A DNA stretch of 64,000 bases from a bacterium (GCA_037200965.1 JBBCGK010000001.1:576001-640000); one strand, 5' to 3'; shown: positions 1-35,434, counted from the first letter of the stretch. Notes: generated by a model from the letters alone, not told the origin. Program-made: numbers and translations.

Positions 1-15
1 TGGGGAGCTGCCATA

Positions 16-450
16 TCAGGATTCATCCTTCCTGTCCTGGACGTCAAGCGACCAGGCAAGGTCCCGGAGCTTGCTTTGCGAGAGTTTCGGAAGCGCCGAC
101 GGCCGTACTTCCTCGGCCTTGGCGCGGGCGGCCGCGGCGGCAGTCGTCGCGGCCGCCTCGCTCTGGGTCGGGTCGGAATGCCGCCACAGGAAGAGCTTTC
201 CTCCTCCGTAGAAGCCGATCGCCGCCTCGATAAGCTCGACGAATGACTTGCCGTTCACTTTATAGAATGCGAGCGCTCCCGCGAGCGCAACTACGGGAAT
301 GCAGAGGATGATGGCGAGGACGAGCGGCAGGGAGAGGATAATGATGGCGCAGAGGCCGCCGCCGCCCGCGATATAAATGAACTGCTTGAGCGTGAGCGGG
401 CCCACGATCTTGTCCTCCACTTCGATGAATTGGGGTACCGGATACTCCAT
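16..450 (-). CDS. PrgI-family-like small membrane protein (T4SS/conjugation-associated), two TM helices
   Basis: N-terminus MEYPVPQFIEVEDKIVGPLTLKQFIYIAGGGG followed by two hydrophobic helices. This resembles PrgI-family proteins of Gram-positive and CPR type IV secretion clusters. It is the last gene of a minus-strand operon. Confidence 0.5.
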   Translation of the reverse strand: MEYPVPQFIEVEDKIVGPLTLKQFIYIAGGGGLCAIIILSLPLVLAIILCIPVVALAGALAFYKVNGKSFVELIEAAIGFYGGGKLFLWRHSDPTQSEAAATTAAAAARAKAEEVRPSALPKLSQSKLRDLAWSLDVQDRKDES

Positions 451-513
451 TTGCTTCCAGTATATACCAAAAGAGCCGCGCGAAGCGGGCGCTATCCTCT
501 TCTTCTCCTGTAT

Positions 514-1092
514 CTAGTGTTGATCGATCGGCTCGTGATACGGGTCCTCGGCATACTCCTTCACGATCGGGCGCGGCAGCGGCGGGGTCTCAAAGGGAGG
601 GCGTGTTTCCGGAGTAGCTGGTGGTGTCTGATATTGCGAGACTTCCTTTTGCTGCCGTACGACAGCGTTTTCGGCCCCGGGCAGGTTCGAAGGGGGAGGT
701 ATTTGTTTTGCGATATGCGTCGGAACTTGCGGCACCTGCCGCATTGATGTGTCCTGCGGCGCTGCTGCGGTTGCCGCGCGCATTTTTGCCTGAAGCGGCT
801 GGAATACATCCTTATTGATATCCTCGAGGATTGCCTTCAGTATTTCCGGCGCGAGCCCAAGCTCCTCCTGCAGTGATTGTGCGAGTTCTGCCGGTGCTTC
901 TGTCCCCGTTAATACCAGCATAAGCTCGCGCCGCACCACTGCTCCTTGGTCGACATGGAGCTTGTATTTGGAAGTAATGGCGCGCGCGGTATTTGCAAGG
1001 CCGTCTTGTGCCAGATATTCGCGTATGGGCGGCGGCAATATTTCCATCATCCGTCCTATACTTTCTTCCAGCGTCGGTTCGGTTTCGTTCAT
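514..1092 (-). CDS. hypothetical protein, Pro-rich C-terminus, member of the secretion-like operon
   Basis: 192-aa ORF co-oriented and tightly spaced with neighbouring genes. No recognisable motif. Confidence 0.4.
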   Translation of the reverse strand: MNETEPTLEESIGRMMEILPPPIREYLAQDGLANTARAITSKYKLHVDQGAVVRRELMLVLTGTEAPAELAQSLQEELGLAPEILKAILEDINKDVFQPLQAKMRAATAAAPQDTSMRQVPQVPTHIAKQIPPPSNLPGAENAVVRQQKEVSQYQTPPATPETRPPFETPPLPRPIVKEYAEDPYHEPIDQH

Positions 1093-1103
1093 ATGTTCTT
1101 TGA

Positions 1104-3107
1104 TTATTTCGCACCCCCCGCGTTTTCAGCCGCCTTTTTGAGAAGCCCCTCGATAGTATCGTATTCTTTTTCGGTTTTCTTCTTTTTTGCCTCGGTTCGG
1201 ATTTTTCGTGCGGCGGCGTTGTCGGCAGCGCGCCCAGGACCGCTGAGCCAGTATGGCTTTTCAAGCGGTATACCAAAGAGGCTAAAGTCTTCTTCAAGAG
1301 CCTGCGCGTACCCTTTCTTTCCTTTCCTGATGATATTTCCGTCCTTATCTTTGATTTCTTCAATACCGATTTGAGGAGCCTTGCTGTACGTGTCGATGAT
1401 TTCATTCTGAGTCTTCTCAACAATCTTATGAGCGGCCTTGGCACGCTCAAGTTCCGCTTTTGCGGCATCGATATCGGCCTGCACGCCGGTCGCTTTTGCC
1501 TTGTCAAGCTTCTCCTCAAGCTCGTCGACGTGTTTCTGCGAGGCGTTTCTTTTAGCGTCCGCCTCGTCAATGATTTTTTGTTCTTCCGGAGTGTTCTTCA
1601 TGCGCTTAGACCGTTCCAGACGTCCCTTTTCAGCGTCCGCTTCCATCTGCCGGTAATTACTCTTCGAGGCAGTACCCAAATCAAGGCCACCTGCCTTAGC
1701 AATTCCCCCAAGGGCTCCGCGCCCGTCGAAAGTCGCTTTCGCGCCTGCATCCGCAACGCGGAAGGCGATGCTATTAACCAGCGGACGCTTGCGCAGCCAC
1801 TCGCTCTTTTCGAACCGCTTGCCAAGGCGGTTGAATCCTCTGCCGATCGTGCGTCGGCCCACGGCTGCGCTGATGCCGAAGAACGCACCGCTGGTGGCTT
1901 TGCTTGCCGTACTCACCGCAAAACCAGCCCCCATCGCGCCGAGTTCCTTGGCCGACATGAGCGCGGCGATCATAAAGCCGATGATGATCGCGAAGGTGAT
2001 GAAAACGCTTACGGAACCGCCCCCCCCGGCCGCAAGCGCGGTCGCGAAACCACCGCCTCCCGCCGCCGCCGAGACCCCCTGGCCGATTTTGAGCCCGATA
2101 AGTGTGAGGAGGAGATAAACCGGAACGAAGAACGACTGGTGGAGTATCGTCGTCCACCATTGCTTCGCATACCCATGGAACATCGGCAGCGCCATGCCAG
2201 CAAAACCGATCGGGGAAAGGACCATCAAAAAAGCGAGCACGACGATACGGACTACGAGCATGATCGCGGCGGCGAACAGAACGACGGCCGCGATCAGCAC
2301 GAAGATGGTCGATAAAATTAAGACAATGACACCGTTGAAATTCCCGCTGAATTTGGTATAGGACTGAAGCCCGTCTTCTCCGAAAATAGTGCCGATGCCA
2401 AGCGTGCTGAGGACCGCTCCCGCAAGGCCGGAATCTGTAAAACAGCTTGCACTATTGCTGCTTTGTATGCTGCAGGTGCTCGAACTTTGGGAACTGATGT
2501 TCGAATAAATAGCGGTCGACAGAAGGTTTGAGCTGTCGATAATCACTTGCGAGATAAAGAGCGAGAAGTTGAGAAGAATCGCGAACAGGAGCAGCTGGGG
2601 CAGTGATTTTTTGAGGCCGTAGTTTTGAAGGCCGAGGATGATGGCGATGCCGATAAAGACAAAGCTGAATATGAGTACGATATTCCCGACGTCGCGCAGC
2701 ACCCCCCAGCCGATTCCGATGCCGGATGCGGTACCGCCGAGCGTCTGGCCGAAGTTGAGGACGCTGTAATAAATAGCCGTATTGAGCAGAATGCCCGAAA
2801 GCCACAGAAGGCCCGATGCGAGCGTAAGAAAAAGATAAGCAATGCTGCCCATCGCGCACGGTACCCACGTGCTTACGCTCCAGATGCTGCATTCGGTTGG
2901 TCCTTTGGTGCCGGACTCAGGGGGTCCCGGTGTCGTTTGCGCGGGCGCTGCCGGAGTATTTGTCGGCGGAGTGGTCGCTGGCGGAGTGGGTGTCCCGAAT
3001 CCGGGCGTCCCGTTTCCGAGTGCGAGCAACGAAAGATTTGTCGCAGACGCTACGCTGGGAAGTGCGAGAATCGCGAGCAACAGAAGCGAAAGAAGGAATT
3101 TTTTCAT
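1104..3107 (-). CDS. TrbL/VirB6-like polytopic membrane protein (signal peptide, Thr/Pro linker, multiple TM helices, charged coiled-coil C-terminus)
   Basis: N-terminal signal peptide MKKFLLSLLLLAILALPSVASA, a TP-rich linker, at least 6 hydrophobic helices, and a C-terminal K/E-rich coiled coil. This architecture is typical of TrbL/VirB6. Confidence 0.5.
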   Translation of the reverse strand: MKKFLLSLLLLAILALPSVASATNLSLLALGNGTPGFGTPTPPATTPPTNTPAAPAQTTPGPPESGTKGPTECSIWSVSTWVPCAMGSIAYLFLTLASGLLWLSGILLNTAIYYSVLNFGQTLGGTASGIGIGWGVLRDVGNIVLIFSFVFIGIAIILGLQNYGLKKSLPQLLLFAILLNFSLFISQVIIDSSNLLSTAIYSNISSQSSSTCSIQSSNSASCFTDSGLAGAVLSTLGIGTIFGEDGLQSYTKFSGNFNGVIVLILSTIFVLIAAVVLFAAAIMLVVRIVVLAFLMVLSPIGFAGMALPMFHGYAKQWWTTILHQSFFVPVYLLLTLIGLKIGQGVSAAAGGGGFATALAAGGGGSVSVFITFAIIIGFMIAALMSAKELGAMGAGFAVSTASKATSGAFFGISAAVGRRTIGRGFNRLGKRFEKSEWLRKRPLVNSIAFRVADAGAKATFDGRGALGGIAKAGGLDLGTASKSNYRQMEADAEKGRLERSKRMKNTPEEQKIIDEADAKRNASQKHVDELEEKLDKAKATGVQADIDAAKAELERAKAAHKIVEKTQNEIIDTYSKAPQIGIEEIKDKDGNIIRKGKKGYAQALEEDFSLFGIPLEKPYWLSGPGRAADNAAARKIRTEAKKKKTEKEYDTIEGLLKKAAENAGGAK

Positions 3108-3110
3108 GGC

Positions 3111-4712
3111 TCAGTGGATGACTGGCGAGAGACAAGCATTCGCCTCCTTCACGATATTATTCATCGTGGTTATAAGCGTACCTCCCTCTCCCCCGGAATC
3201 GGTGCTTTGCGTTTCGGCGTCCGCTATTTCGCTCGCGGAAGGCGTGGTTGAAGCAGAAAGGAATTGCTGATAGTTGAGTCCCGCCCGCGCAAGCGCGCCC
3301 GCGGCGGGAACGGAACCGTCCGCAGGCGTTACTTGCTCGGAAAGAATGCCCAGTGTCTGAAGCGAAGCGACGGCCTTCGCATCTGCGGCGGAAGCCTGGT
3401 CTATCACAGGATTCACGACCGTTTCTATCACGGCGCCCGCGTTCGCTCCTTCTTCAAAAGTGCAGGCACCGAAGACAGTATGGCTGTTGGCAGCCTCCGT
3501 GGCCGCCGTCTTTGCCGCATCTGCGGCGGCACCGATCTTCTTCCAGTCGTTCTGATATTTCGTAATTTGCGTTTTTCCTTGCTGGAGCGCTTCCGAGAGA
3601 TTGGATACGACATTCGAGACGTTCCCCGCATCGGCTGCCGCGAGGTCCGGTCGGCTGAAATAATCACTGCCGCCGCCTTGCGGTTTGGAAAGACCCAGGA
3701 AGCCGCTGCCGCCGAGCACGTTCTTGATAAGTCCCTGGAGAACGGCACCGATAATTTCGTCTATCTCGTCGGCCGAGATGACGGAGTCGATCGGGGTGCC
3801 GATCGCCTTGCTCGCGGCGTCCGCGATGACCGAGCCCGGGGTCTCGATATCGTATTCAAGACAGTTTGCACCATTGTCCTTCACGACCGGGTCGGAGAAC
3901 TGGAAGTCCATCGTGCCGTCCGGGTTTGTCGTTACGACCGGGTCGGCCACTTCAACGGTCTGCGGCGCTTGACCTTGCAGTTTGCAGTCGCCGCGCCAGG
4001 AGAGGAAGCCCTTATTCTGAGTTATTTCATCTTTGCTTTGTGTGACTGCCGCAGTCGCCCGGGCGATGAGCTCGTCACGCGCCCGCATCGCGAAGCCCAC
4101 GGGGTTATTCTGGGAATCCATCGTGAACCTGAACCATCCCGAGAGCCCGCCTTTATTGAAATCGAATCCGGAAGATGAAACCGCAACGGTCGCGCTTCCG
4201 AGCGTGCACTGGTTGAGAAGGAAGAATGAGTTGCTCGACGTCGACTTGTAGTAGTCCGCCTGGAGAAGCGCCGCCGTATTTACTTTGAAAGGCAGGTCGA
4301 GTGAGAAGTTACCGATCTGCGAGAAGAATTTCGACGCAACCTGATCGACGATGTTTCCGAGATGCACGTTCAGGTTCACCACGAACGACGGTGATCCGTT
4401 GAAACCGTTGCTCGCCCAACTGACGATGCTTTGCACCATGGCGGCCTTCACTTGCTGCACGACCGCATAAGCGAGCGGATCGAGCACATATTCTTTTATT
4501 TGGAGTGCAAGGGCGTTTTCGGACGTTACGGCATCGGCAGCAGCAGAGATCGTTTGCTTTGCGATTTCGATGAAGGTGGTGGGTGCTGAGTCGCTTGCTA
4601 TGTGCACAGTCTGTGCCTGCACGCGCGAAGAAGCGAAGAGTGTCGGGGCCGCGAGCGAAAGCCCGATGATAAAAACTGCGGCCCGGACGCGACTTGAGGG
4701 GGGTTGCGGCAT
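3111..4712 (-). CDS. secreted hypothetical protein (signal peptide, A/S/T-rich)
   Basis: 533-aa ORF with a signal peptide (MPQPPSSRVRAAVFIIGLSLAAPTLFASS). It is separated by 3-4 nt from its neighbours in the operon. Confidence 0.5.
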   Translation of the reverse strand: MPQPPSSRVRAAVFIIGLSLAAPTLFASSRVQAQTVHIASDSAPTTFIEIAKQTISAAADAVTSENALALQIKEYVLDPLAYAVVQQVKAAMVQSIVSWASNGFNGSPSFVVNLNVHLGNIVDQVASKFFSQIGNFSLDLPFKVNTAALLQADYYKSTSSNSFFLLNQCTLGSATVAVSSSGFDFNKGGLSGWFRFTMDSQNNPVGFAMRARDELIARATAAVTQSKDEITQNKGFLSWRGDCKLQGQAPQTVEVADPVVTTNPDGTMDFQFSDPVVKDNGANCLEYDIETPGSVIADAASKAIGTPIDSVISADEIDEIIGAVLQGLIKNVLGGSGFLGLSKPQGGGSDYFSRPDLAAADAGNVSNVVSNLSEALQQGKTQITKYQNDWKKIGAAADAAKTAATEAANSHTVFGACTFEEGANAGAVIETVVNPVIDQASAADAKAVASLQTLGILSEQVTPADGSVPAAGALARAGLNYQQFLSASTTPSASEIADAETQSTDSGGEGGTLITTMNNIVKEANACLSPVIH

Positions 4713-4714
4713 AG

Positions 4715-5737
4715 TTAATAGCCGTTAACGGGCGAAATGCTGAGAAACTGTGATCCGGGCTCTCCTGCGGGGACGACCACTCCCGCATCCTTGAATGTCT
4801 GTGCCATCGCGACGAACGCGTTGCGCATCGCGATGACGTCGTCAGGATACTTGGCAAGCCCGAGCGAAGTCAGGAGCGGATCGCGATCAAGCGCAGCGAG
4901 CTGTTGTGTCACTGTGCCCATGTTCGCGAGCGCGTTCGCGAGCGCGAGATGTTTCGTCGCGAGTTCCTCGGGTACCGGCACGCTGCTGAGGGCATGTGCT
5001 CCCCCGGTATAGGTCTCGGCGATCTTCCCTATCATGTCGAGCGCCTTTGTGTCGCTTCCACTTATCGCGTCTCCGAGATAGAGGAGCTCGCTCTTTTTTG
5101 AAGGGGCTGTATATCCGGCAAGCGTATTTTCAGCAGCGGCCGCGTAAGTCCGCATTGCTTCCGGGCCGCTTCCCGATACGTTCATTTGCCCGAGCGTAAA
5201 TGCATCCTGTTGCGGCACCGCGCGCTCCAATTCCGAAAGCGCGCTCGCGACGAACGTTGCCATATCGTCCGCGGAAAGAGGCGCTCCCTGATGCGCCGCG
5301 ACGTATTGCGCGAAGAATGCCTGGGCGAACTGCTCGGTGAGGGAGCCGGGAGCTGGCGCTTTCCCCGGAATGTTTTTTGCTATGGTCGAGGAAGCAACCG
5401 AGGATGCCGGTATCGGCGCCTTCGGCACGATAAGTCCCTGCGCGACTGCTTGCGCGTCCGTCATGCCCCGCCCGCCGGTGTCGGTCTTATCCGGATCCGT
5501 ACCGTAGAGCGACTCTTCCCAGTCCGGGAGGCCGTCGCCGTCGGAGTCTTTTACGGCTATGGCCTTGAGGAGATCGTCGGTCGTCCCGGCCTCCGCGTTC
5601 GACGCTTTGAAAAGATGCGGCCACTGCGGGATGAGGTACGCCGCAAACACCATTACCAGGGCAATGGCGAGCGCAACTGGCGTGCTCCATTGTTTCGTTT
5701 TGTTAGTCACACGCGTACCGTAAAGGATAGCACGCAA
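4715..5737 (-). CDS. membrane-anchored protein with thrombospondin-type-3-like Ca-binding repeat (DSDGDGLPDWEE, DPDKTD)
   Basis: N-terminal TM anchor followed by a DxDxDG acidic repeat. It is the first gene of the minus-strand operon 5737->16. Confidence 0.5.
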   Translation of the reverse strand: MRAILYGTRVTNKTKQWSTPVALAIALVMVFAAYLIPQWPHLFKASNAEAGTTDDLLKAIAVKDSDGDGLPDWEESLYGTDPDKTDTGGRGMTDAQAVAQGLIVPKAPIPASSVASSTIAKNIPGKAPAPGSLTEQFAQAFFAQYVAAHQGAPLSADDMATFVASALSELERAVPQQDAFTLGQMNVSGSGPEAMRTYAAAAENTLAGYTAPSKKSELLYLGDAISGSDTKALDMIGKIAETYTGGAHALSSVPVPEELATKHLALANALANMGTVTQQLAALDRDPLLTSLGLAKYPDDVIAMRNAFVAMAQTFKDAGVVVPAGEPGSQFLSISPVNGY

Positions 5738-5760
5738 GCCCGTTTTACCTCACTATACCT

Positions 5761-6543
5761 TCATGGTGTGTGCATAGCGCTGGCGAGGAGAAGCCATGTG
5801 GAAAGACCCAAATCTTCCGCGCGCGCCTTCTCCGGAACTTCCGCCGCAAGAAACGCATGTTGGATCGCTTCCGGTGCGGCGATTGCCTCCAAATTTCGCG
5901 CCAAAAGCTTCCTTTTATGGGCGAATCCGGCACGGATAGCCGAGAAAAAGGACTCTTCCTGGGCCGTATTCTTGAAATTAGCACGGCCGATGTTTTCTAT
6001 GGTGAGCACGGCCGAGTCTACGGCCGGAGCGGGCACGAACGCGCCTTTGGGGACCGTAAAGCGGTATTTCGGCTCGCCGTACGCCTTCACCGAAAGCGAA
6101 AGCAGGCTCTCCTTCTTGCTTCTGGCGATACGAACGGCCACCTCCTTCTGCACCAGAAGCGTCATCGAGGCGGGCTGGTGCGCGTCGGTAAGGAACCGGC
6201 GCAGGATCTCGCCGCTTATGTAGTACGGAATATTCGCCACGAGGAGATAGCGCTTCGGGAACGCTGCCGTGTCGAACGCGCGGATGTCCTCATGGATAAG
6301 CTCGAGCTTTCCTAAGCCAATCTCCGCGGCGAAGGTTTCCCGGAGTATGGGAATAAGCTCCTTATCGGTCTCGACGGCGACCACATGCCCGGCGCGCGAG
6401 AGGAGTTCCCGCGTGAGAAGCCCGGTTCCGGGACCGATTTCAAGTACGGTGTCTTTGGGGCCGATGCCCGCGGCATCCGCGATGCGTGCGGCAATCGAGG
6501 CGTGCATGAGAAAGTGCTGGCCGAGCGATTTCTTCGCGCGCAT
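5761..6543 (-). CDS. rsmA: 16S rRNA (adenine1518/1519-N6)-dimethyltransferase RsmA/KsgA
   Basis: Motifs KSLGQHFL, EIGPGTGLLT and NIPYYISG. Confidence 0.9.
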   Translation of the reverse strand: MRAKKSLGQHFLMHASIAARIADAAGIGPKDTVLEIGPGTGLLTRELLSRAGHVVAVETDKELIPILRETFAAEIGLGKLELIHEDIRAFDTAAFPKRYLLVANIPYYISGEILRRFLTDAHQPASMTLLVQKEVAVRIARSKKESLLSLSVKAYGEPKYRFTVPKGAFVPAPAVDSAVLTIENIGRANFKNTAQEESFFSAIRAGFAHKRKLLARNLEAIAAPEAIQHAFLAAEVPEKARAEDLGLSTWLLLASAMHTP

Positions 6544-6546
6544 AGA

Positions 6547-6840
6547 TTAGAAACTCCGGCGCTTTAACGCGCGAAGCAGGTCCGGCCCGTATCCCTGGCT
6601 TCGATGCCGCAGAACCAGGACGATCAGTTCGTCTTTTTTGCACCGGCGGATGGCCCGCCAGTCTCCGACCCGGAGGGAGCGATAGTCCGAAAGCGGGTAC
6701 CCGAGAGGCTTCCCGGGAAGCGCCATGCGCGCATACTGCTGTTCGATAGACGTATGTACGCACTTCCATACCGAAGCGTCGAGACTCCGCGCGTCTTTGG
6801 CAATAACCTCGCTATGATAGCTAACGCGCCACGCGCTCAT
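6547..6840 (-). CDS. type II toxin, RelE/ParE family
   Basis: C-terminal LSDYRSLRVGDWRAIRRCKKDELIVLVLRHRSQGY matches the RelE/ParE core. The start (MSAWRV) lies inside a longer ORF and overlaps the upstream antitoxin by 20 nt. Confidence 0.65.
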   Translation of the reverse strand: MSAWRVSYHSEVIAKDARSLDASVWKCVHTSIEQQYARMALPGKPLGYPLSDYRSLRVGDWRAIRRCKKDELIVLVLRHRSQGYGPDLLRALKRRSF

Positions 6841-7102
6841 CGTGCAATTTGCGCCAGAGCGCGTCTGCCTCGCCCGCGCTGAGGTATTTCGTGCCCGGGG
6901 CGGTACGTTCCTTGAGCATCTTCGCAAGCGCCCGCTGCTCTTTCGGCGTTATATATTCGAATTCTTCTTCCGCAATAGCCGCGTCAAGCATTCTGGCGGC
7001 GATGGTGGCGCGCGGAGTCCGTTCCCGCTTGGCGCGAAGGGAGAGCGCCCGCGCGGTCGACGGCGCGAGTGTCACCAGCATGCGCTCCTTGGTTGTCGCC
7101 AT
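6821..7102 (-). CDS. ribbon-helix-helix-type antitoxin
   Basis: 93-aa protein MATTKERMLVTLAPSTARALSLRAKRERTPRATIAARMLD immediately upstream of, and overlapping, the toxin gene. Confidence 0.55.
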   Translation of the reverse strand: MATTKERMLVTLAPSTARALSLRAKRERTPRATIAARMLDAAIAEEEFEYITPKEQRALAKMLKERTAPGTKYLSAGEADALWRKLHDERVAR

Positions 7103-7145
7103 ATATCAAAAGTGTATCACCTGCTCCGCGCGTGCGCAACCGGAA

Positions 7146-10139
7146 TCACGCCTCGATGATACGTTCCTGTCCGGAATGTCTCATGAGCGCGGGATCGATG
7201 TCGTGCAAGAAGTTCGACGGCTCGGTGATAAAGTCGGCGCCGTAGATGCGGCGGATGCGTGCGAGCGTAAGCACGAGGCGTTTTTTCGCGCGCGTCATCG
7301 CGACATAGAAGAGGCGCCGCTCCTCTTCGTCGTCGTCTTCCTCGTTGCGCTCGTGCGGGAACAACCCTTCTTCAAGTCCGCTTACGAACACCAGATCGAA
7401 CTCGAGTCCTTTCGCCGCGTGCACCGTCATGAGCGTAACGCCCGTCTTCCCTTCAACGCGGTCGAGCTCGTCCTGGTCTCCCGCAAGAGCCGCGTCCGCA
7501 AGGAACGCCGCGATGCCTCCCCGCCCCGGAGTATCGTCGTAGCGCGTCGCCAGAGTAGCGAGCTCCTGGATGTTCTCGAAGCGTTCCTTCTCTTCTTCGT
7601 TTCCGTGCTCGAGTTCGGCCTTAAGCCCGCTCTTCTCGACGACGAGCCGCACGAACTCCGAAGGTGCCGCGCTTTCGGCGCTTCGCGAAAGTTCCCCGAC
7701 TATCGCTTCGAACGCCGCGACTTTCGCCTTCTCGCCCGCCCGGAGCTCGTCGCGCTTTCCTGCCGAAAGTTTCCCGAGCGTCGTCTTGCCGATGCCGCGC
7801 GTTGGCGCCTGCACCGCGCGCATCCGGTCCGCTTCGCGCGAGGGTTCAAGCGAAAGACGCACCCACGCGAGTACGTCTTTCACCTCCTTGCGGTCGTAGA
7901 ACCTCGTACCTAAGAGCTTGTACGAAATCCCTTCGGCAAGGAACGCCTCCTCGAGCGCGCGGGACTGGAAGTTAGTGCGAAACAGAACCGCGATTTCTTC
8001 CGGTGCCGTGCCGTTTCGTATCACGCGTCCCGTCTCGTGCGCGATCCAACGCGCTTCGTCTTCCGCGTTGTCCGCGACGTGGAGCGTGATCGGATCGCCA
8101 GGTGCGTTTTCCGTAACCGAGCGCTTTTCTTTCCGGCGCCGGTTTTTTTCGATCACGGCGTTCGCCGCGGAAACGATCGTCGCCGTCGATCGGTAGTTAT
8201 GCTCGAGCATGATGGTTTTCGCGCTCGGGTAGGTTTCGTCAAACGCGAGCAGGTTGTCTATCGTCGCGCCGCGCCAGCTATAGATGCAATTGTGCGTCGC
8301 GATGCCATTCGCGACGAAATTGTGTGTGCCTTCAATGTCGATGTCGTATACCCGCACTTTCCTTGCGGGGACGCGTTCAACCTTATCTACAAGGTCGTAT
8401 CCTCCCTCGGAATCAAAGACCGCCATGCCCGGCCGTACGCTTGCGGCGGGAAGGAGCGGAAGCGAATTCCCGTCCCTGAGCCTCGCCTTTTTCCCGCCAA
8501 GCCGTGCCGCACGCACGATGCTCGCGCTTGGAAACGCGACGCGAAGGCGTTCGACGCTTTCAAGCAGTGCCCCGTAACTCTTATGGGCGGATTCGAATCG
8601 CCAGCTGGCAGATCCTTTCTTTGCCGGACGCACGGAGAATCCGGCCTTTCGTAAAAGGATGCTGCCTTCCTCGTCGCTACCCACCACCGATATCCTGTGC
8701 ATTGTTGTTTCCCCGCGCCGGTCGCCGCACAACGTTATGTTGATGTTTCGCCGGTCGCTCCGGGTCGCCTGCGCGCGGTGGTGCGGATGCGCAGGAGAAA
8801 GGAAGAGGTCGTCCATAAGTTTCTTCGCACCGGACTCAGTATCGAAAGAAGCGAAGACGGAATCGATCGTTCCTTGATCATGAACGTATCCTCCGGTGCC
8901 GCTCCCCTTGCGCGCGACAAACGGGAGCGTCGGGATACCATATGAAAGGGACAGCTTGTATTCCATCACCCGTGCTGCCCGGGAAGTATCGTGTGTCCCG
9001 AGAACCCACACCGCGTCTCCGTGCTCCTGGTTGCAGCGCTGCTGGAATCCGGCCATAGCCAGGCGCTGTCCGTTCGTATAGGCGCGCGAAACGCCGAGCC
9101 GCCAGCCGACACCGTTTTTTGCCATGAGATACGTAAAATAAAGTTGCGGCATGAGTCCGAGCCGATATCCGGCGAAATGCACGTGTTCTGGCGTGCTCGT
9201 GAGGATCCGTCCCGCGGCCGTGGTTATGCGCACCAATGTGCCAGAGTGCGTCCGCTGCTTAGCGCGAATAACGCGCGCGGCGCGCGTATCGCCGCTTCCG
9301 TAGTTCGACCGAACCTCGTCGCCTATTCGTATCTTCTCGATGTTCCTTTCGGAACCGTCGGCCATTGCCACTTTCGTCCCGGCGACAAGGCATTGATCGA
9401 TATCTCCGACCACAAATACGTTCCCGTGCCGCCTGGAAAGCATGCCGACGAGCGTTCCTTGAAGCGCGTTCGTATCCTGAAACTCGTCAATGTGGAGATA
9501 GTCCCAGCGCTCCTGCGCGAGCGCACGTACGTCCTCATGCTCGCGCAGGAGCCGTACCGGAAGCGAGATGAGATCGTCGAAGTCGAGCGCTTTCTCTTCC
9601 CTCAGCGTTTTCTCATAGCGCAGCCACGCTTCGGCGACGATACGCCCCCCGAAGCTTTTGCGGCCATGCTCGGCATAGAAGCTCTCCGCGGTTTCTCCCG
9701 CTCCCTTGGCCTTCGATATGCGCGACAACACCGCTCTTGGCGAAAGTTCCTTCGTGTCGACATCAAGTTCCTTGAGAGCCTTGCCGATCGCTTTCTGGGA
9801 GTCGTCCCGGTCGAAGATGGTGAAGTGCCTCGGCACGCCGATCTTTGCGCCGTACGACTCGAGAAGCTCGCGGCCGAGCCCGTGGAATGTGGCGATGAAA
9901 GGCGGCCGGCCGCCGTGAAGAAGCCTTGAAAGCCGCTCGCGCATCTCGCGCGCGGCTTTGTTGGTAAAGGTGACGGCGAGGATCTTCTCGGCGGGCACCC
10001 CCTCCTTTATAAGGTGGTAAATCCGGGTGGTAAGCACCTTCGTTTTCCCCGATCCTGCCCCGGCAAGCACCGATACCGGGCCGGCGGTCGCGAGAACCGC
10101 CGCTTTTTGGGCGTCATTAAGGTCTTCGAGGTGGTTCAC
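7146..10139 (-). CDS. UvrD/PcrA-family ATP-dependent DNA helicase, intein-containing
   Basis: Walker A AGAGSGKTKVL and DEFQDT are present. Helicase motif III (VGDIDQ / CIYSWRGA) is split by a 368-aa insertion. C-terminal helicase motifs are intact. Confidence 0.85.
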   Translation of the reverse strand: MNHLEDLNDAQKAAVLATAGPVSVLAGAGSGKTKVLTTRIYHLIKEGVPAEKILAVTFTNKAAREMRERLSRLLHGGRPPFIATFHGLGRELLESYGAKIGVPRHFTIFDRDDSQKAIGKALKELDVDTKELSPRAVLSRISKAKGAGETAESFYAEHGRKSFGGRIVAEAWLRYEKTLREEKALDFDDLISLPVRLLREHEDVRALAQERWDYLHIDEFQDTNALQGTLVGMLSRRHGNVFVVGDIDQCLVAGTKVAMADGSERNIEKIRIGDEVRSNYGSGDTRAARVIRAKQRTHSGTLVRITTAAGRILTSTPEHVHFAGYRLGLMPQLYFTYLMAKNGVGWRLGVSRAYTNGQRLAMAGFQQRCNQEHGDAVWVLGTHDTSRAARVMEYKLSLSYGIPTLPFVARKGSGTGGYVHDQGTIDSVFASFDTESGAKKLMDDLFLSPAHPHHRAQATRSDRRNINITLCGDRRGETTMHRISVVGSDEEGSILLRKAGFSVRPAKKGSASWRFESAHKSYGALLESVERLRVAFPSASIVRAARLGGKKARLRDGNSLPLLPAASVRPGMAVFDSEGGYDLVDKVERVPARKVRVYDIDIEGTHNFVANGIATHNCIYSWRGATIDNLLAFDETYPSAKTIMLEHNYRSTATIVSAANAVIEKNRRRKEKRSVTENAPGDPITLHVADNAEDEARWIAHETGRVIRNGTAPEEIAVLFRTNFQSRALEEAFLAEGISYKLLGTRFYDRKEVKDVLAWVRLSLEPSREADRMRAVQAPTRGIGKTTLGKLSAGKRDELRAGEKAKVAAFEAIVGELSRSAESAAPSEFVRLVVEKSGLKAELEHGNEEEKERFENIQELATLATRYDDTPGRGGIAAFLADAALAGDQDELDRVEGKTGVTLMTVHAAKGLEFDLVFVSGLEEGLFPHERNEEDDDEEERRLFYVAMTRAKKRLVLTLARIRRIYGADFITEPSNFLHDIDPALMRHSGQERIIEA
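8289..9392 (-). other. intein (368 aa) inserted in helicase motif III; Cys1 (CLVAGTKV), terminal HN, +1 Cys
   Basis: N-terminal splicing block CLVAGTKVAMADG...IGDEV and C-terminal block VYDIDIEGTHNFVANGIATHN followed by the extein CIYSWRGA. No LAGLIDADG or HNH motif is recognisable in the central region. Confidence 0.7.
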
Positions 10140-10500
10140 CGGTCAAATATACCCCACATTCCCCTATCCCCAGCTTCACCAAGCCTTCATTGACAGGGGT
10201 TTTTGCCCGGGTAAGATAGCTGAATCGACTGACCCGGAAGAACTCAAGAAATGGCCCATATAAGCCGTTTTTGTACTTGGGAGCACGCCTGAACAACCTT
10301 TAAACCGTATCTTCTCGAACAAGAATCTTCCTGATTCCAAAGGGCGCAAAGGTGCACCTCAGGACGCATATCGGCTGATCCACCCCGCAACCGCGGCGTG
10401 CCTCGCCCTCTGTCTTCTTTTTCTCCTGGCCCCGGGCCTTGCGAAGGCTTTTTCGCTTTCCGGGCTCTTCGGAAGCCCTGCCCAGGGTGCTTCGGGGGTA

Positions 10501-12984: not shown

Positions 12985-13788
12985 ATGCGGAAGCCAGCGA
13001 CTCCTCTCACCGAACGCATCATCGATGCGCTATCAAACGGTCCGCGCGGGAAAGTGGAACTGCGCAACCGGGTCGTCGGCAAGGATTTTACCTACCAAGG
13101 CTTCTATAAAGCACTCGCCTCGCTCCGCGCCGCGGAAATAGTTACCCTCCATCGTGACACGGTAAGCCTTTCCGTCGTCTGGCTCGAGCGGGAGCGGGAG
13201 CGTATCGCGAAGAGTGCGGACGCATATCATCTCTCCGGATATCAGAGTTATTTCGGCGGGTTGAAGAATGGCAAGAAACTCTCTTTTAAATTCAAGACGC
13301 TCCGTGAACTCGACCTCTTCTGGACGCAGGCGGTGCTTATCGCGATGCAGGGCGCCGGTCGCGGCGTTCCCATCATTTCCTTCATCCCCCACGACTGGTT
13401 TTACCTTCTTCGGCCCTCGACCGCCGACGTATGGTTCAAACTGCTTGGCAAGGAGAATCCGCATGTGAACATCCTCACGCACGCGACTCGGGAAGAAAAG
13501 AAACTGAGCGAGCATCCTCGCGTTGCCCGCATCGAAAATATGTTCGGCGAGAACCCGCTCCGGCAGAAGGAATCCGCGTATATGAATGTTATCGGCGATC
13601 TGGTGATCGAAGCTGCCCTTGATGAGGCAGTCGTACCCGGGATTCGACGGGCGGTCCGCGGTGAGGCGGTCGACATCGACAAACTCACGGCTCAAAAAGG
13701 TGTTTTCAAGCTTTCTATCCGGCGCGATTCTGCCAAGGCTTCTGTCTTTACGAAGAAAGCCCAAAAGTACTTCAGCATATCTCTGTAA
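12985..13788 (+). CDS. uncharacterised winged-helix regulator-like protein, paralog family X (1 of 3)
   Basis: 267 aa with an N-terminal wHTH-like region. It shows clear similarity to 26571..27374 and 62739..63554 (IPHDWFYL / NPHDFWAY / NPHNWSS, and the C-terminal blocks). Confidence 0.55.
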   Translation: MRKPATPLTERIIDALSNGPRGKVELRNRVVGKDFTYQGFYKALASLRAAEIVTLHRDTVSLSVVWLERERERIAKSADAYHLSGYQSYFGGLKNGKKLSFKFKTLRELDLFWTQAVLIAMQGAGRGVPIISFIPHDWFYLLRPSTADVWFKLLGKENPHVNILTHATREEKKLSEHPRVARIENMFGENPLRQKESAYMNVIGDLVIEAALDEAVVPGIRRAVRGEAVDIDKLTAQKGVFKLSIRRDSAKASVFTKKAQKYFSISL

Positions 13789-15128: not shown

Positions 15129-15875
15129 TTAAAGACCGTCCCACAAAACGTCAAAAGCGTCTTTCAGATACTTCACGATCGCCTGATTCTCGATCATCAC
15201 TCCCACGTTGTCCTTGTACGAGAAGAAATACGCGCGGTTGCCCACAAAATAGATTCCCGCTTCCTGCTCGTCGATGTCGAGCCGTTTAACGTTTCGCCCG
15301 AGCGCGGTCTGCTCATCCCTGATGCCGAAGTTGTCCGGCGCGTCCGCGATGAGGAGGTTGGTCGTGACTCCGTACGAGTGCCGACGCTCGATAAATCCGC
15401 GGATGTATTCTTCGAGTCCGCCATCGAAGCGATTGATGCCGAACCCGCGGAAGCTTTTGGCTTTGGTGCCTTTGTGCTGCGTAAGAATATTCTCGAACAG
15501 TCTCTTCAGTCCCTCTTGCCCTTCGTAGTACTGCACGACCGGGAATGCGCCTCCGCGCTTGTTCTCCGCAAGAAGCTTCGGCAGCTCCCGCTCGAGCGTC
15601 TTTTTCTGCTTTTCAAGTTCGTCTTTCCTTTCGGCGACCAGCCGCAAGAGCTCGTTCGGGTCGGCATAGAATTGCCGGACGCCCCGCTTGTCGCTCTGGT
15701 CGATAAATCGCTTCTTGACCAGATCGGCGAGGAGCGAATAGACCGTCTGCCGCGGCAGTCCTGTTTCTTTCGCAACTTTAGCGGCGCCCGCAAGCCCGAT
15801 TCGTAGTAGAGCGAGGTACACACACGTTTCTTTTTCGGACAGGCCGAGTTTTTGTAGGATTTGTTCCACACCCAT
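15129..15875 (-). CDS. TrmB-family transcriptional regulator
   Basis: N-terminal LGLSEKETCVYLALLRIG...ETGLPRQTVYSLLADLVKKRFI. Confidence 0.8.
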   Translation of the reverse strand: MGVEQILQKLGLSEKETCVYLALLRIGLAGAAKVAKETGLPRQTVYSLLADLVKKRFIDQSDKRGVRQFYADPNELLRLVAERKDELEKQKKTLERELPKLLAENKRGGAFPVVQYYEGQEGLKRLFENILTQHKGTKAKSFRGFGINRFDGGLEEYIRGFIERRHSYGVTTNLLIADAPDNFGIRDEQTALGRNVKRLDIDEQEAGIYFVGNRAYFFSYKDNVGVMIENQAIVKYLKDAFDVLWDGL

Positions 15876-20247: not shown

Positions 20248-21168
20248 ATGAATGCCGAGCAGCTCAAGCGGCAATTTCTCGAATACATCGAAATCGAGCG
20301 AGGCCGGAGCGTGAAAACGGTCGAGAACTACGACCGCTACCTTTCGCGCTTTATCAAACAGGCGGATATAAAAGACCCTTCCGATATTACCGAACCGAAA
20401 ATCCGCGAATTCCGCATGTGGCTCAACCGCCAGTCGGGCACCGGACGGGACTCGATGAAGCGCCGCACCCAGAACTATTACCTCATCGCGCTCCGCGCAT
20501 TCCTCAAATACCTCCGGAGGCTCGAGATCCAGACCATAGCCCCCGAGCGCATCGAACTCGCGAAGGTGCCGGAGCGGCAGATCGACCTTATAACCTCGGC
20601 GGAGCTCAGTCGCCTTATAGACTCCCCTGCCGAGGCGCTCAAAACGGAAAAAGACCCGCACGTGCGCCGTACCCTCCTTCGCGACCGCGCAATCATGGAA
20701 CTTCTCTTCTCCACGGGCCTGCGTATCGCCGAGTTGTGTTCCCTCAATAACGATCTCGATCTTGGAAGGGACGAATTTTCCATACGAGGCAAAGGCGACA
20801 AAGTCCGCGTGGTATTCCTCTCCCCTGCCGCCAAGGAGGCGGTACGCGAATACCTCAAGGCTCGCGCTGATATGGAGGAGGCGCTCTTCGTCGACGGCCG
20901 CCCGAAGAAGCTCCACCGCATCACTCCCCGCGACGTGCAGCGGCACCTCAAGGCGTATGCCGCCCGGGCCGGTATCACGAGCAAAGTGTCTCCCCATACC
21001 CTTCGGCACGTCTTCGCGACTGATCTTCTAAGCAACGGCGCGGATATCAGAAGCGTCCAGCAGCTCCTCGGCCACGCCTCCATCATCACGACGCAGATCT
21101 ACACGCACGTTACCGACTCGCACTTGCGGGATGTGCATAAGAAGTTTCATAGCAAAAACCGCGAGTAG
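20248..21168 (+). CDS. tyrosine recombinase XerC/XerD family
   Basis: Motifs HTLRHVFATDLLSNGADIRSVQQLLGHASIITTQIYTHV. The start was chosen at the internal ATG (MNAEQLKRQFLEYIEIERG). Confidence 0.8.
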   Translation: MNAEQLKRQFLEYIEIERGRSVKTVENYDRYLSRFIKQADIKDPSDITEPKIREFRMWLNRQSGTGRDSMKRRTQNYYLIALRAFLKYLRRLEIQTIAPERIELAKVPERQIDLITSAELSRLIDSPAEALKTEKDPHVRRTLLRDRAIMELLFSTGLRIAELCSLNNDLDLGRDEFSIRGKGDKVRVVFLSPAAKEAVREYLKARADMEEALFVDGRPKKLHRITPRDVQRHLKAYAARAGITSKVSPHTLRHVFATDLLSNGADIRSVQQLLGHASIITTQIYTHVTDSHLRDVHKKFHSKNRE

Positions 21169-21981: not shown

Positions 21982-22728
21982 ATGCAAAACCGGGAATCGC
22001 TCAGAAAAATGCTCATACGCTCGGGCCTTAACGATCACGAAGCCGTAGTGTATCTTTCGATGCTTGAACTCGGCCCCTCGACCGTGCTCAAAATCTCCCG
22101 ACAGTCGGGGGTAAAACGAACAACCATTTACGCCGTTATAGAGTCCCTGCGCGCCAAAGGACTGGTAGGGATTGAGGAGCCGGGTCTCAAGCGCATATAC
22201 GTAGCGGAGAATCCGACGCGTCTTGAACGCATACTCGATGAACAGAAGCATGCCCTTCAGTCGTTTTTTCCCGAACTTCAGGCACTCTATTCGCTGCGCG
22301 GCAATAACTCAATAATCCGTTATTACGTCGGTACCGAGGCGATGAGGAGCGTCTACGACGAACTTCTCGCGGAACTCAAAAGCGGTGACGACTATTATGT
22401 CTTTGGGGACCCCGAGCGGTGGGATGCGTTCGATAAAGACTATTTCAAGTCTTTCATTGCTCGCAGGCTGCGGATCAATCTCAAGGCGAAGATCGCGCTC
22501 ATACCCTCAGAAGTTGCGAAAAGTTATAAGCTAAATGAGAAGAATTTTCGGGAAGAGGTTCGCTTGCTTCCGAAAGGCACGCGGCTTGATGCAAATATGC
22601 TGATAACGCCTCGGAAAATCGTAATTCACCCGCTCACCTATCCCATTACGACCATTGTTATTGAAACAGACGCCTTGGTTCGTATGCAGCAGGAGCTGTT
22701 TATGGTGACGTGGGAAGGACTCATATAA
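21982..22728 (+). CDS. TrmB-family transcriptional regulator
   Basis: Sequence SGLNDHEAVVYLSMLELGPSTVLKISRQSGVKRTTIYAVIESLRAKGLV. Confidence 0.8.
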   Translation: MQNRESLRKMLIRSGLNDHEAVVYLSMLELGPSTVLKISRQSGVKRTTIYAVIESLRAKGLVGIEEPGLKRIYVAENPTRLERILDEQKHALQSFFPELQALYSLRGNNSIIRYYVGTEAMRSVYDELLAELKSGDDYYVFGDPERWDAFDKDYFKSFIARRLRINLKAKIALIPSEVAKSYKLNEKNFREEVRLLPKGTRLDANMLITPRKIVIHPLTYPITTIVIETDALVRMQQELFMVTWEGLI

Positions 22729-26570: not shown

Positions 26571-27374
26571 GTGATATTCAGCCGCACGGAAGACCTCGAA
26601 GACCGTATCATCGAACTCCTCCTTGAGGGTCGTTTGAGTATCAAATCGATGCACGCCCGGCTGGTCTTTCCTGAGAAATCGCTCTCGCTTCGCGCTATTT
26701 ATAAAGCGACGGACAAACTCATCGCGGCGGGCGTGCTCATTAAAACCGGGAAGCGGCTGATGGTGGACGAAGAATGGGCGCGAAGGGTAGGGGAGCGACT
26801 TCGTCCTGTCCCGGTCGCGGCGCCCTCAGTCGGGGAGAAATTTTCCCATACCTTTACATCGATCGAACACCTCGATGCCTTCTGGAAGACAGTGGTCCTC
26901 CCTATTGAGGAATCGGTTCCGAACCCCGAAGTCTTCTTCTACAACCCGCACGATTTCTGGGCATATATGCCCGAGCGCAAGGAAAGCGAGGAGGCGTATT
27001 ATCGGCATTTCGCTAAGGTGGGGCGCCACGGCTTTTTTATCGTAGGAGGGGAGTCTGAGGCGGACAAGGAATTTAAGCGGGAATACCAAGGCGAATACCT
27101 TCAAATAGATACAAGAAATATCCTATCCCTTCGCCGAAGTGACCATGTGACCGTTATAGGCTCTCTTATCGTCACGGTACGGCTCCCTAAGGTATCAGCG
27201 ACGCGGATCGATAAGCTCTATGAATCGAACAGGCCGATAAAGGACACACTTCCCGAGCTTCTCCCCATCTGTCGGGCGTTGGGGAAGATTCGCTTCACCC
27301 TTGAAAACGACCCCTTGAAGGCAAAGAAGCTCAGAAAGCTTCTTGCGAGGAACTTCTATTTTCCGAAAACGTAG
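26571..27374 (+). CDS. uncharacterised winged-helix regulator-like protein, paralog family X (2 of 3)
   Basis: 267 aa, homologous to 12985..13788 and 62739..63554. Confidence 0.55.
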   Translation: MIFSRTEDLEDRIIELLLEGRLSIKSMHARLVFPEKSLSLRAIYKATDKLIAAGVLIKTGKRLMVDEEWARRVGERLRPVPVAAPSVGEKFSHTFTSIEHLDAFWKTVVLPIEESVPNPEVFFYNPHDFWAYMPERKESEEAYYRHFAKVGRHGFFIVGGESEADKEFKREYQGEYLQIDTRNILSLRRSDHVTVIGSLIVTVRLPKVSATRIDKLYESNRPIKDTLPELLPICRALGKIRFTLENDPLKAKKLRKLLARNFYFPKT

Positions 27375-29478: not shown

Positions 29479-30804
29479 CTAGTCGGCCAGCGTGATGATT
29501 CGGTCGTTGAGAATAAGCCGATCTCTGAGGTGCTCCAGCAGCTCCCGCTTTTCCTCTCTCGTGCCGTTCTTCAGCAGATACTTGGCATACTTGCGTATGT
29601 CCATCTCCTTGGCCTCGATGGTTTCTTTGGTGCCCTCCACCTCCGCCCGCAGCTTGTTGTATCGGGACACCTCCCGCTCAATGAGGTGTCGCGCCCCGAT
29701 CTCGTCAAGGGAGATGCGGTCTATCATGGTGGCGAGCTGGTCGAGTACTTTCTCCTCCCGCAGATACGGGTTCTTGCACTGGGTATCCTTGGCCCGGGAG
29801 CAGGAATAATACACATAGGAGACGGGCTCGCCGGTACTCAATATCTTCTGCTTCTCCTGTGCCGTTATGCCGCTCCCGCAGTACCCGCACAGCAGGAGCT
29901 TGGTGAAGTTCCATTCTTTGAAGCGGTGCTTGGGGCGGTTCTCCTCGGCGATCTTTTCCTGCACGGCTTGGAAGAGTTCCTGGGTGATAAGCGGCGTATG
30001 TTTGCCGGTATACCAGTTTCCCGAGCCTCTCGGATACTCGAACACGCCGCAATAGAAGGGGTTCTTGAGCATTTTGTATAGCGTCGAGAGATTCATGCTC
30101 TTGCCGATGCGCGAGGCGAACTGCACATCCCTCTTCAGCCACCCGTGTACCTTGCGGCCGCTCCAGCGCTCGATCCCGACTTTCTCGAAGACCTGTTTAA
30201 TGATTGGCGCTCTAATAGGGTCCACCAATATCTCGCAGCGGTGATCCTTCCGAGAATCGTTGAGGTATCCCGTGGGCGCGATGCCGGGCCACAGGCCCAT
30301 CTCGGCCCTTGCACGTAGCCCGCGCTTCACATTGATGCGCTTGTTATCGTTCTCAAGCTTCGCTTGGCTCCCAAGAATCATCAGCAAGAACTTCTCGTTC
30401 GGGTTGTTGCCGAACCGCTGCCCATATGTGCGTATGTCCACCAAGTGCCTGCTATCCATTAAGTCCACGATGCGGCCGAGGTCGCCTGCGTTGCGACTGA
30501 TGCGGTCCGGTGCCCAGGTTAAGATGCCGTTGAACTTTCCAGCCCTCAATTCGTCTACGATTTCATTGAATACCGGTCGCGCTCCGGCCTCCTTGGCCGA
30601 GTGCGACTCTCGCTTCACCTCGACAATCTCCAATTTCTCTTTCTCTGCGAGCGCCAACATCTCCTTGACCTGGCTCTCGATGCTCAAAACTTGCTGCTCC
30701 TCGCTCTCTGTACTTTTCCTCGCATACAAGCAGTACCGCACCGCCTGTACCTCCACCAAGGGAGGAGCCGCCCCAAATCCGCCCTGAATCATTGCTGTTT
30801 CCAT
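29479..30804 (-). CDS. large serine recombinase (resolvase-type catalytic domain + recombinase domain + zinc ribbon + coiled coil)
   Basis: Catalytic motif [16 protein letters not shown], a recombinase domain, CGYCGS...[12 protein letters not shown], and a long C-terminal coiled coil. Confidence 0.85.
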
Positions 30805-34660: not shown

Positions 34661-35434
34661 ATGTCAATAATTCTTGACCAAACGGATAGCAAGGAGTTGA
34701 TTGAAGGGCTTGAGACGCTGGGCCTGAACGCTAAGGAGGCACAGGTCTATCTGGCCCTTTTGCCCCGTCGGGACGTCGGTTCCTCGAAGATTGTCCTTGC
34801 GACAGGCCTTCATAAGCAGTTCGTATACAATGCAATCGAAAAACTGGAGCAATTAGGCCTCATAAAGCATGTCATACAGAACGGCCGGAAGAAGTTCAGT
34901 GCCAATCCGCCGAGTCGTCTCCTCTCTATCGTGGAAGAGAAGCGCCTTGCCGCTCAAAACATGGCGAAGCGCCTCCAGGAACGCTTTATCGGCGCGCATG
35001 AGCAGGATTTCGAAGTGTTCCAAGGAGATTCGGCCGTACTTGCCCACCATTACGATATGTTCGAACGCATCGAACAGGACCAGGAAGCGCTCGTGATATC
35101 GGGACCCACCGAGACATTCCTTAAGATTATCGGCCCGGACGAGAAGGATGTATTCGAGGAAACGCGCGTAGCGAAAGGCCTTCGCATCCGCTATCTGGGT
35201 ATGGAATCGATGCGCGAACGGCTCATCGAGACGAAAAAATGGCGCAAGCTCTTCGATTACCGCATCCTGCCGGGCGGACAATCGACCGGCCAGCTCGATA
35301 TCGATATCTGGCCGAACAACGTCACGTACAACCTTTTCGGTGATCCTCTGCTCTCCATCACGATTACGAACAAAGCGATGACCGATGGATACCGGGAGTT
35401 CTTCGAGTCGCTGTGGAAGCTCTCGAAACCATAA
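34661..35434 (+). CDS. TrmB-family transcriptional regulator
   Basis: Sequence LGLNAKEAQVYLALLPRRDVGSSKIVLATGLHKQFVYNAIEKLEQLGLI. A TTGACG-17-TATGCT promoter-like element lies upstream. Confidence 0.75.
   Translation: MSIILDQTDSKELIEGLETLGLNAKEAQVYLALLPRRDVGSSKIVLATGLHKQFVYNAIEKLEQLGLIKHVIQNGRKKFSANPPSRLLSIVEEKRLAAQNMAKRLQERFIGAHEQDFEVFQGDSAVLAHHYDMFERIEQDQEALVISGPTETFLKIIGPDEKDVFEETRVAKGLRIRYLGMESMRERLIETKKWRKLFDYRILPGGQSTGQLDIDIWPNNVTYNLFGDPLLSITITNKAMTDGYREFFESLWKLSKP

Follow-up and report, generated by a model that had tools for sequence, protein, structure and literature searches.

Type IV secretion genes of Paceibacteria layout near the chromosomal origin: a likely non-conjugative contact machine

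A large part of bacterial diversity belongs to the Patescibacteria, which seem to live on other cells. In the one species approached genetically, their type IV secretion system (T4SS) is to our knowledge the first on whose function the growth of the owner has been found to depend. The closest described relatives of the locus reported here come from two studies. A survey of 3,035 Patescibacteria genomes found VirB4 in ~80% of them, as a clade nested in the monoderm mating-pair-formation class MPF-FATA, and associated with TrsD, PrgI/VirB3, VirB6 and VirB2-like pilins and almost never with a relaxase (Quinonero-Coronel et al., 2025, Microb Genom; PMC12102498). In Paceibacteria the system typically lies near dnaA, rnpA, rpmH and ksgA (PMC12102498). 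In Southlakia epibionticum ML1 the T4SS corresponds to SEML1_0006-0019, and epibiotic growth requires nearly all of these genes (Wang et al., 2023, Cell; PMC10633639). Here we analyse a stretch of 64,000 nt from a bacterium (GCA_037200965.1, JBBCGK010000001.1:576001-640000; hereafter the window), at the start of which five genes, g1 to g5, occupy positions 16 to 5,737. Judged by profile matches, a structural model and gene order, the five very probably belong to a chromosomally fixed, monoderm-type (MPF-FATA-related) T4SS of the Patescibacteria (or candidate phyla radiation, CPR), in the Paceibacteria layout by the origin and likely a non-conjugative contact machine.

The five open reading frames (ORFs) that an earlier note, made from the window sequence alone, had listed are all present on the minus strand, namely g1 at 4715-5737 (340 aa), g2 at 3111-4712 (533 aa), g3 at 1104-3107 (667 aa), g4 at 514-1092 (192 aa) and g5 at 16-450 (144 aa). 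The note had read them as a five-gene operon with spacers of 3-12 nt. The five genes stand, but the spacers are 2, 3, 11 and 63 nt, the last of which, between g4 and g5, breaks that range, and the unit is larger, since the five are the first, promoter-proximal part of a conserved 11-gene block. In the 63-nt spacer, a hairpin followed by a T-run shows no better folding than shuffled controls (z = +1.0), and consensus scans of this spacer for a terminator and for a promoter were both at background. Upstream, ksgA is separated from g1 by 23 nt. Downstream, a TrsD-like gene, g6, starts at window position 26 and overlaps the g5 stop by 11 nt, so that only its first codons (1-26, minus strand) precede the truncation by the window edge. 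Beyond this edge the cluster can be followed in its 5' to 3' direction on the PrgI-bearing 960-kb contig JBBCBH010010897.1 of assembly GCA_037975565.1, whose locus (L001) is the reverse complement of window positions 1-10450 and identical to it over 10,450 nt.

When one genome per species was scanned with an alignment of 23 VirB6-like sequences (a 53-sequence version was too divergent), 70 loci were returned, all from metagenome-assembled genomes (MAGs) of Paceibacteria, Parcubacteria or Kaiserbacteria type. To assess synteny, all ORFs in the 70 loci were then subjected to iterated hidden Markov model (HMM) searches with the proteins of the 11-gene cluster and of its neighbours. The order UvrD, KsgA and g1 to g11 recurs in essentially every sufficiently long locus, with YidC, RnpA and L34 following on the other strand, and the full run from g1 to g11 is found in ~45 loci, in each case in the same chromosomal setting. 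Taken singly, g2 occupies its position immediately upstream of the VirB6-like gene in 68 loci, g4 lies between VirB6 and PrgI in 65, an orthologue of g1 is found at the same position in 64, and PrgI is present in 62; the clustering of the five genes is far beyond chance. The genes are also tightly packed: inside each of the sets g1-g4 and g5-g8 the median intergenic distances range from -4 to 5 nt, with larger median gaps of ~45 nt at g4-g5 and ~68 nt at KsgA-g1. For some of the loci that carry the block (L010, L017, L019, L022 and others) the record title reads 'uncultured Candidatus Saccharibacteria' or 'Bacillota bacterium', which on loci of Paceibacteria type are probably taxonomic mislabels.

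The recognisable core of the system starts with g5. The g5 product, called PrgI-like already in the earlier note, scores 43 bits on PF12666 (PrgI) against a gathering score of 27. By hydropathy the protein forms a hairpin of two transmembrane (TM) segments at residues ~21-66, followed by an Ala-rich hydrophilic tail, and its gene abuts TrsD/VirB4. When the HMM of the g5 family was run against a set of 23 proteins, it matched PrgI of a Clostridium perfringens plasmid (E 6.5e-5) and PrgI of pCF10 (E 0.021). By its profile matches, g5 is the VirB3/PrgI subunit. A VirB4-type ATPase had been expected just past position 1, and a search leftwards for VirB4 and VirD4 had been advised; VirB4 is indeed there, as g7 behind the TrsD-like g6, while VirD4 is not found in the 10 kb beyond the edge. 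The g6 product (219 aa) aligns to positions 1-120 of the CD1110 VirB4 profile (E 2e-7) and to positions 99-233 of the VirB4 profile Mbov_0397, from a mycoplasma integrative and conjugative element (ICE; E 1.3e-11). It also matches TrsD NF041427 (E 4.9e-4, below the cut-off of that profile) and has a precomputed match to the TraC-like family PF26593. The VirB4 gene g7 (606 aa; L001 11103-12923) begins 18 nt after g6, and its product reaches 385.5 bits on NCBIfam conju_CD1110, above the cut-off of 325 and aligned over profile positions 179-733, as well as 92 bits on P-loop_TraG; a Walker A motif GSGKS and a Walker B-like LLVIDEAW are readable in the sequence. Because g6 matches the N-terminus of VirB4 and g7 the ATPase part of the same profile, the VirB4 motor is, on these alignments, split here into a gene for the TrsD-like N-domain and a gene for the ATPase. 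PrgI, TrsD and VirB4 of this locus also match successive parts (13-77, 231-289 and 363-476, respectively) of NCBIfam NF042935, a 477-aa profile of actinobacterial SCO6880 proteins, which hints at a fusion of the type VirB3-TrsD-VirB4N in the latter.

Across ~57 species-level genomes no protein of the region is as well conserved as VirB4, which exceeds KsgA, YidC, RnpA and L34. Since its median identity to the window protein is 80%, compared with 59% for KsgA, 46% for YidC and 44% for RnpA, the motor is more tightly constrained than the housekeeping genes next to it. TrsD (62%) and PrgI (50%) are intermediate, and the envelope-facing g1 to g4 diverge fast (29-34%).

The gene upstream of g4, g3, encodes the VirB6-like polytopic protein with a long helical tail that had been foreseen. 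A hydropathy scan predicts a signal peptide and six to seven TM segments, the sequence also contains a Pro/Thr-rich segment, and an AlphaFold2 (AF2) model, built on the alignment of g3 homologues and with a pLDDT of 76.9, places TM helices at residues 78-410 and long helices at 485-575. The Lys/Glu-rich, helical tail comprises ~180 aa (485-663) and is probably cytoplasmic. Searched with Foldseek against the PDB, the model has its best matches with TrwI/VirB6 of R388 (probability 0.98-0.99), so that g3 is a predicted polytopic membrane protein of at least five TM segments with a modelled VirB6 fold; a profile search of the g3 family against PDB sequences gave coiled-coil noise only. The 86 g3 homologues all come from Patescibacteria/Paceibacteria-type sources, and among 53 of them 18 match TrbL (PF04610) at E≤0.01, with a best value of 4.9e-7. 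By these Pfam matches of homologues and by the modelled fold, g3 is a VirB6-type membrane channel or platform subunit, and its signal peptide, Pro/Thr-rich segment and helical tail fit the description of an 'extended VirB6' (PMC12857230). Public gene callers start g3 at an internal Met, which yields 582 aa and drops window positions 2853-3107 (minus strand); the conserved signal peptide and the Pro/Thr-rich segment are thereby lost, and a false intergenic gap of 258 nt results. The start that gives 667 aa appears preferable, because the signal peptide is conserved in homologues, with A22 nearly invariant, and because only 3 nt are then left to g2.

The remainder of the block was read from the source contig. 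Past VirB4 follow a polytopic protein (g8, 163 aa), an exported protein (g9, 324 aa), a protein combining a VirB2-like pilin hairpin with an fn3 domain (g10, 425 aa; L001 14412-15689) and a TM-anchored protein (g11, 416 aa), and after g11 the order is yidC, two small genes, rnpA, rpmH and dnaA. The g10 product of this genome reaches 22.8 bits on T4SS_pilin, below the cut-off of 26.6, and 31 of 36 orthologues match the same family (best 7.3e-11), 20 of 36 also TrbC. What the g10 family conserves is the VirB2-like pilin hairpin alone (median coverage 0.27), and its C-terminal part differs between loci, being fn3 here and DUF4329 (73 bits) in L019 (16974-18161), and in the pooled g8-g11 set 11 members match 'Cadherin-like' and one matches Pre-toxin TG. 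The sequences suggest that the g10 family carries swappable surface domains on a pilin anchor. An all-against-all comparison of the 11 families by hhalign detected no internal paralogy except for one match between g9 and g10. This match lies at alignment columns 352-415, past the 324-aa length of g9 in this genome, and presumably comes from longer ORFs elsewhere that reach into a pilin-like region.

The three remaining window genes belong to families with little to connect them with known proteins. Pfam and NCBIfam scans covered the single proteins and 52-60 orthologues of each, and PDB profile searches with the three families returned coiled-coil noise only. The product of g1 is bitopic by hydropathy, with a single N-terminal TM segment at residues ~17-40. 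It had been called a TSP3-repeat protein, and one probable bacterial TSP3 repeat is indeed seen at residues 64-82: g1 scores 22.4 bits on TSP3_bac (PF18884), slightly below the cut-off of 25, with the motif DSDGDGLPDWEESLYGTDP readable, and 33 of 60 orthologues match TSP3_bac, the best at E 4.6e-8. Beyond TSP3, a Pro/Ala/Ser linker leads to a C-terminal domain of ~200 aa, for which the single protein, the 60 orthologues and their profile gave no Pfam family besides TSP3 and no PDB relative. The signal peptides ascribed earlier to the cluster agree with the hydrophobic N-termini that hydropathy predicts for g1, g2 and g3. In the case of g2 this signal-like segment makes the protein a predicted exported or anchored one, with a helical C-terminal bundle. 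Its conserved N-terminal region contains the motifs WINSGF-G-SP-FV and TPGSVI, and its nearly invariant residues include C284 and C527. As the nearly invariant residues include these two cysteines but no acidic catalytic candidate, the sequence suggests a structural extracytoplasmic protein. The family is very large, with 5,984 clusters at 50% identity for E≤1e-3 and 3,473 for E≤1e-30 in an exhaustive search, and the clusters with a named source are called 'hypothetical protein' and stem from Kaiserbacteria and similar organisms. Neither the single g2 protein, the scanned orthologues nor the profile has a Pfam, NCBIfam or PDB relative, and tblastn against 72,556 plasmids gave no match. A DUF4141 match of one g2 orthologue (E 9e-4) was rejected as chance. 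An AF2 model based on 18 sequences, a shallow alignment that a profile search with 52 sequences could not deepen because it returned the same 18 proteins, reached a pLDDT of 54 and resembled generic helical bundles in Foldseek; it was rejected as evidence for a fold, and a low-probability match to TrwJ/TrwI was discarded along with it.

No TM segment is predicted by hydropathy for g4, a putatively soluble protein which consists of an N-terminal domain of ~100 aa and a proline-rich linker, and ends in the peptide DPY[R/H/K]E, here EDPYHEPID (window 514-560, minus strand). This ending occurs in 61 of 66 g4 orthologues and in no other ORF of 71 loci or of the window. Searches with the single protein, the scanned orthologues and the profile found no Pfam, NCBIfam or PDB relative. 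Since the C-terminal motif is private to this family and follows a proline-rich linker, it may serve as a docking motif, perhaps for the ATPase complex.

Together these features suggest how such a machine could be built. PrgI would tether the TrsD/VirB4 ATPase to the single membrane beside a VirB6 oligomer, and g4 would be an adaptor on the cytoplasmic side, docking by way of the DPYRE peptide at its C-terminus. The wall-spanning extracytoplasmic part would be formed by g1, which is TM-anchored and carries a TSP3 of Ca-binding type, and by the exported g2 with its conserved cysteines. VirB4 would pull VirB2-like pilins from the membrane and thereby raise a surface stalk or pilus together with a conduit, which could serve contact-dependent exchange with a host cell, and both protein export and macromolecule import would be compatible with this. 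Among the Pfam families of the genes called in the 64-kb window and in the 10 kb beyond it, no relaxase, MobC or VirD4/TcpA was found. Because the system comes with neither a relaxase nor a coupling protein, conjugation of DNA is most likely not its function, and the same lack, taken with the VirB2-like pilin, makes a pilus- or stalk-based contact machine the most economical reading. This agrees with the literature (PMC12102498; PMC10633639) and with the earlier note, which did not connect clusters of this kind in reduced-genome lineages with classical conjugation.

Several observations weigh against a T4SS of this kind and extent. For the products of g1, g2 and g4 no relation to a T4SS subunit was detected, and it is by synteny that they are assigned to the system. 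For g3, Pfam searches at E≤1 or E≤0.01 gave no TrbL/VirB6 (PF04610) match of the protein itself; the earlier prediction of a TrbL profile match is therefore borne out in homologues and not in g3, whose sequence link to TrbL is transitive. VirB1-type hydrolases (SLT, CHAP, lysozyme) and VirB8/PrgL left no profile signal in the 11 proteins and their family members, a search that for g1, g2, g8, g9 and g11 was sequence-based. The negative result for relaxase and coupling protein covers 64 kb plus 10 kb of a 960-kb contig, with ~890 kb outside, and VirD4 homologues occur in many Patescibacteria, far from virB4 (PMC12102498). Finally, the data on essentiality come from Saccharimonadia, another class with other accessory genes.

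The first alternative is that the locus encodes an import machine for DNA or other macromolecules, similar to archaeal Ced or to ComB of Helicobacter, which would supply a cell that cannot make its own nucleotides. Nucleotide biosynthesis is missing in Patescibacteria, and import from hosts is favoured by the authors of the survey (PMC12102498). The missing relaxase and type IV coupling protein (T4CP) would suit this too, as they are likewise missing from T4SS-derived uptake systems, and the P-loop of VirB4 shows weak, partial matches to CedB (E 2e-9) and CedD (E 2.5e-3). These matches, however, are far below the cut-offs and limited to the shared ATPase core, and profile scans of the cluster proteins did not detect accessory proteins of ComB or Ced type. 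Furthermore, DNA uptake in Southlakia proceeds via ComEC and type IV pili and is not the reason why its T4SS is essential (PMC12857230), and the VirB2-like pilins point to a structure built outwards. We therefore regard a dedicated import machine as unlikely.

A second alternative confines the T4SS to g3, g5 and the downstream ATPase, with g1, g2 and g4 as bystanders in a ksgA operon near the origin. Synteny alone is no proof of function, because the housekeeping proteins UvrD and KsgA are equally syntenic, and searches of Pfam, NCBIfam, the PDB, pCF10 and the clostridial plasmid gave no similarity of g1, g2 or g4 to a T4SS subunit. Yet the gaps from g1 to g4 are only 2-11 nt here and short elsewhere too, g4 stands between VirB6 and PrgI in locus after locus, and g1, g2 and g4 diverge fast, as VirB6 does, and not slowly like the flanking housekeeping genes. 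On balance this reading seems improbable, and somewhat more so than import. Whether the opposite extreme applies, with the Paceibacteria T4SS an invariant 11-gene machine and g1, g2, g4, g8, g9 and g11 all genuine subunits unlike any described, is a more tentative matter, for which we see slightly less than an even chance.

It is very improbable that the block instead serves mating-pair formation in a classical conjugative element, be it an ICE or an integrated plasmid, for DNA delivery to other cells: VirB4 does belong to the CD1110 family typical of monoderm conjugative plasmids and ICEs, the order VirB6-PrgI-VirB4 is collinear with prgH-prgI-prgJ of pCF10 and with the C. perfringens plasmid, and the window contains recombinase, integrase and IS200 genes, though 14-30 kb distant, but DNA-processing genes of the relaxase, MobC and VirD4 families are missing as described above, relaxases were found in only 103 of 3,035 surveyed genomes (PMC12102498), VirB4 is highly similar across loci, and the same flanks (UvrD, KsgA, YidC, RnpA, L34 and DnaA) in 70 species-level genomes indicate vertical inheritance. 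The base composition of the T4SS block is continuous with that of its flanks, with equal GC content, no long repeats able to mark the ends of an element were found, and the window holds no DNA-level repeat of at least 60 nt. A mobile origin was accordingly rejected, given the conserved synteny, the composition and the lack of DNA-processing genes.

Several other features of the window were noted. The mobile-type genes lie mid-window at 20248-21168 (plus), 29479-30792 (minus), 35685-36116 (plus) and 37998-39062 (plus) and comprise a tyrosine integrase, a serine recombinase, an IS200-type Y1 transposase and a Fic protein; they are at least 14 kb from the T4SS block and not syntenic with it, and toxin-antitoxin genes of YafQ/PhD type occur further along. 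On the ksgA side of the block, a UvrD/PcrA-type helicase (7146-10139, minus strand; 997 aa) is interrupted by an intein, according to a precomputed Intein_splicing match and to Hint-like CLVAGT...HN motifs readable in the translation. In 61 loci UvrD keeps its synteny with the block, and many of the orthologues probably do not have the intein, because the median alignment coverage is only 0.39. Six paralogues of a ~250-aa family with 21-36% identity (15129-15875, minus; 21982-22728, plus; 34661-35434, plus; 53875-54678, plus; 57845-58615, minus; 60177-60998, minus), at least five of which match PF01978 (TrmB-type regulator), represent an unusual expansion for 64 kb of a sub-1-Mb genome. Three paralogues of an unannotated ~267-aa family, with 20-26% identity, lie at 12985-13788 (plus), 26571-27374 (plus) and 62739-63554 (minus). 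A PilB/GspE-type ATPase (MshEN and T2SSE; 48818-50557, plus) indicates that the genome also encodes a type IV pilus or a system resembling the type II secretion system, as reported for other Patescibacteria.

With respect to known systems, the locus agrees best with the T4SS of the Patescibacteria clade, with which it shares VirB4, TrsD, PrgI/VirB3 and VirB6, probably also a VirB2-like pilin, the fact that neither relaxase nor T4CP is found beside virB4, and the chromosomal position by ksgA, rnpA, rpmH and dnaA (PMC12102498), and nothing contradicts its membership. Indirectly, VirB4 orthologues that are all found in Paceibacteria-type MAGs, and plasmid VirB4s that reach only 32-36% identity, suggest that g7 may fall inside the Patescibacteria VirB4 clade. 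To the survey the present analysis adds an order of 11 genes that is constant across 70 genomes. Apart from the TSP3 of g1, the families g1, g2, g4, g8, g9 and g11 have no convincing match among the families searched, which did not include the profiles or the unannotated neighbour genes of that survey (PMC12102498).

The T4SS of Southlakia has in common with this locus the core of VirB6-like protein, PrgI, TrsD-like protein and VirB4, probably pilins of PF18895 type, a position a few genes from dnaA and the lack of a recognised coupling protein or relaxase. Its VirB6-like proteins, however, are two and of giant size, its small pilins form an array of six, and it also encodes an NTF2-like (VirB8-like) and a lysozyme protein. 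None of these is recognisable in the present locus, which has g1, g2, g4, g8, g9 and g11 and a single predicted pilin fused to fn3 in their place. The MPF-FATA systems (Prg/Pcf of pCF10 and clostridial plasmids of CD1110/CD1115 type) share the CD1110 family of VirB4, PrgI directly upstream of VirB4, a VirB6-type protein upstream of PrgI and the absence of an outer-membrane core. They also carry a relaxase, MobC, VirD4 (PcfC/CD1115), a large VirB1-type hydrolase (PrgK/SLT) and the VirB8-like PrgL, none of which was recognised in or near the present block; their VirB4 is unsplit (~790 aa) and they lack VirB2 pilins, whereas here VirB4 appears split and a predicted pilin is present. When the HMMs of the 11 families were compared with PrgC-PcfC of pCF10 and with the T4SS of the C. 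perfringens plasmid, only PrgI and VirB4 matched, and the closest plasmid VirB4s, at 32-36% identity, come from Firmicutes and Actinobacteria. The structural relatives of g3, TrwI of R388 (7o3v, 8rt9) and DotA of the Legionella Dot/Icm system (9ngy), have ~10% sequence identity to it, and g3 differs from them by its signal peptide, its Pro/Thr-rich segment and its C-terminal helical tail. Among the proteins of the block no VirB5 partner of g3 was recognised; g2 is placed relative to the VirB6 gene where virB5 sits relative to virB6.

The locus is thus a new example of the Patescibacteria T4SS described between 2023 and 2025 and nothing new in kind. It presents the Paceibacteria system as a fixed 11-gene module that has a strongly constrained ATPase and half of whose parts are uncharacterised, including the very large, unannotated g2 family, and its residual interest lies in this invariant architecture, in the constraint on VirB4 and in the conserved families, above all g2 and g4. 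Were the six additional families genuine subunits, the module would be a housekeeping-grade envelope machine of largely new architecture and not a trimmed conjugation system, marked by a g2 family of ~6,000 clusters for which Pfam has no model, a cytoplasmic g4 adaptor with a private DPYRE docking peptide and a VirB4 that evolves more slowly than ksgA, yidC and rnpA nearby.

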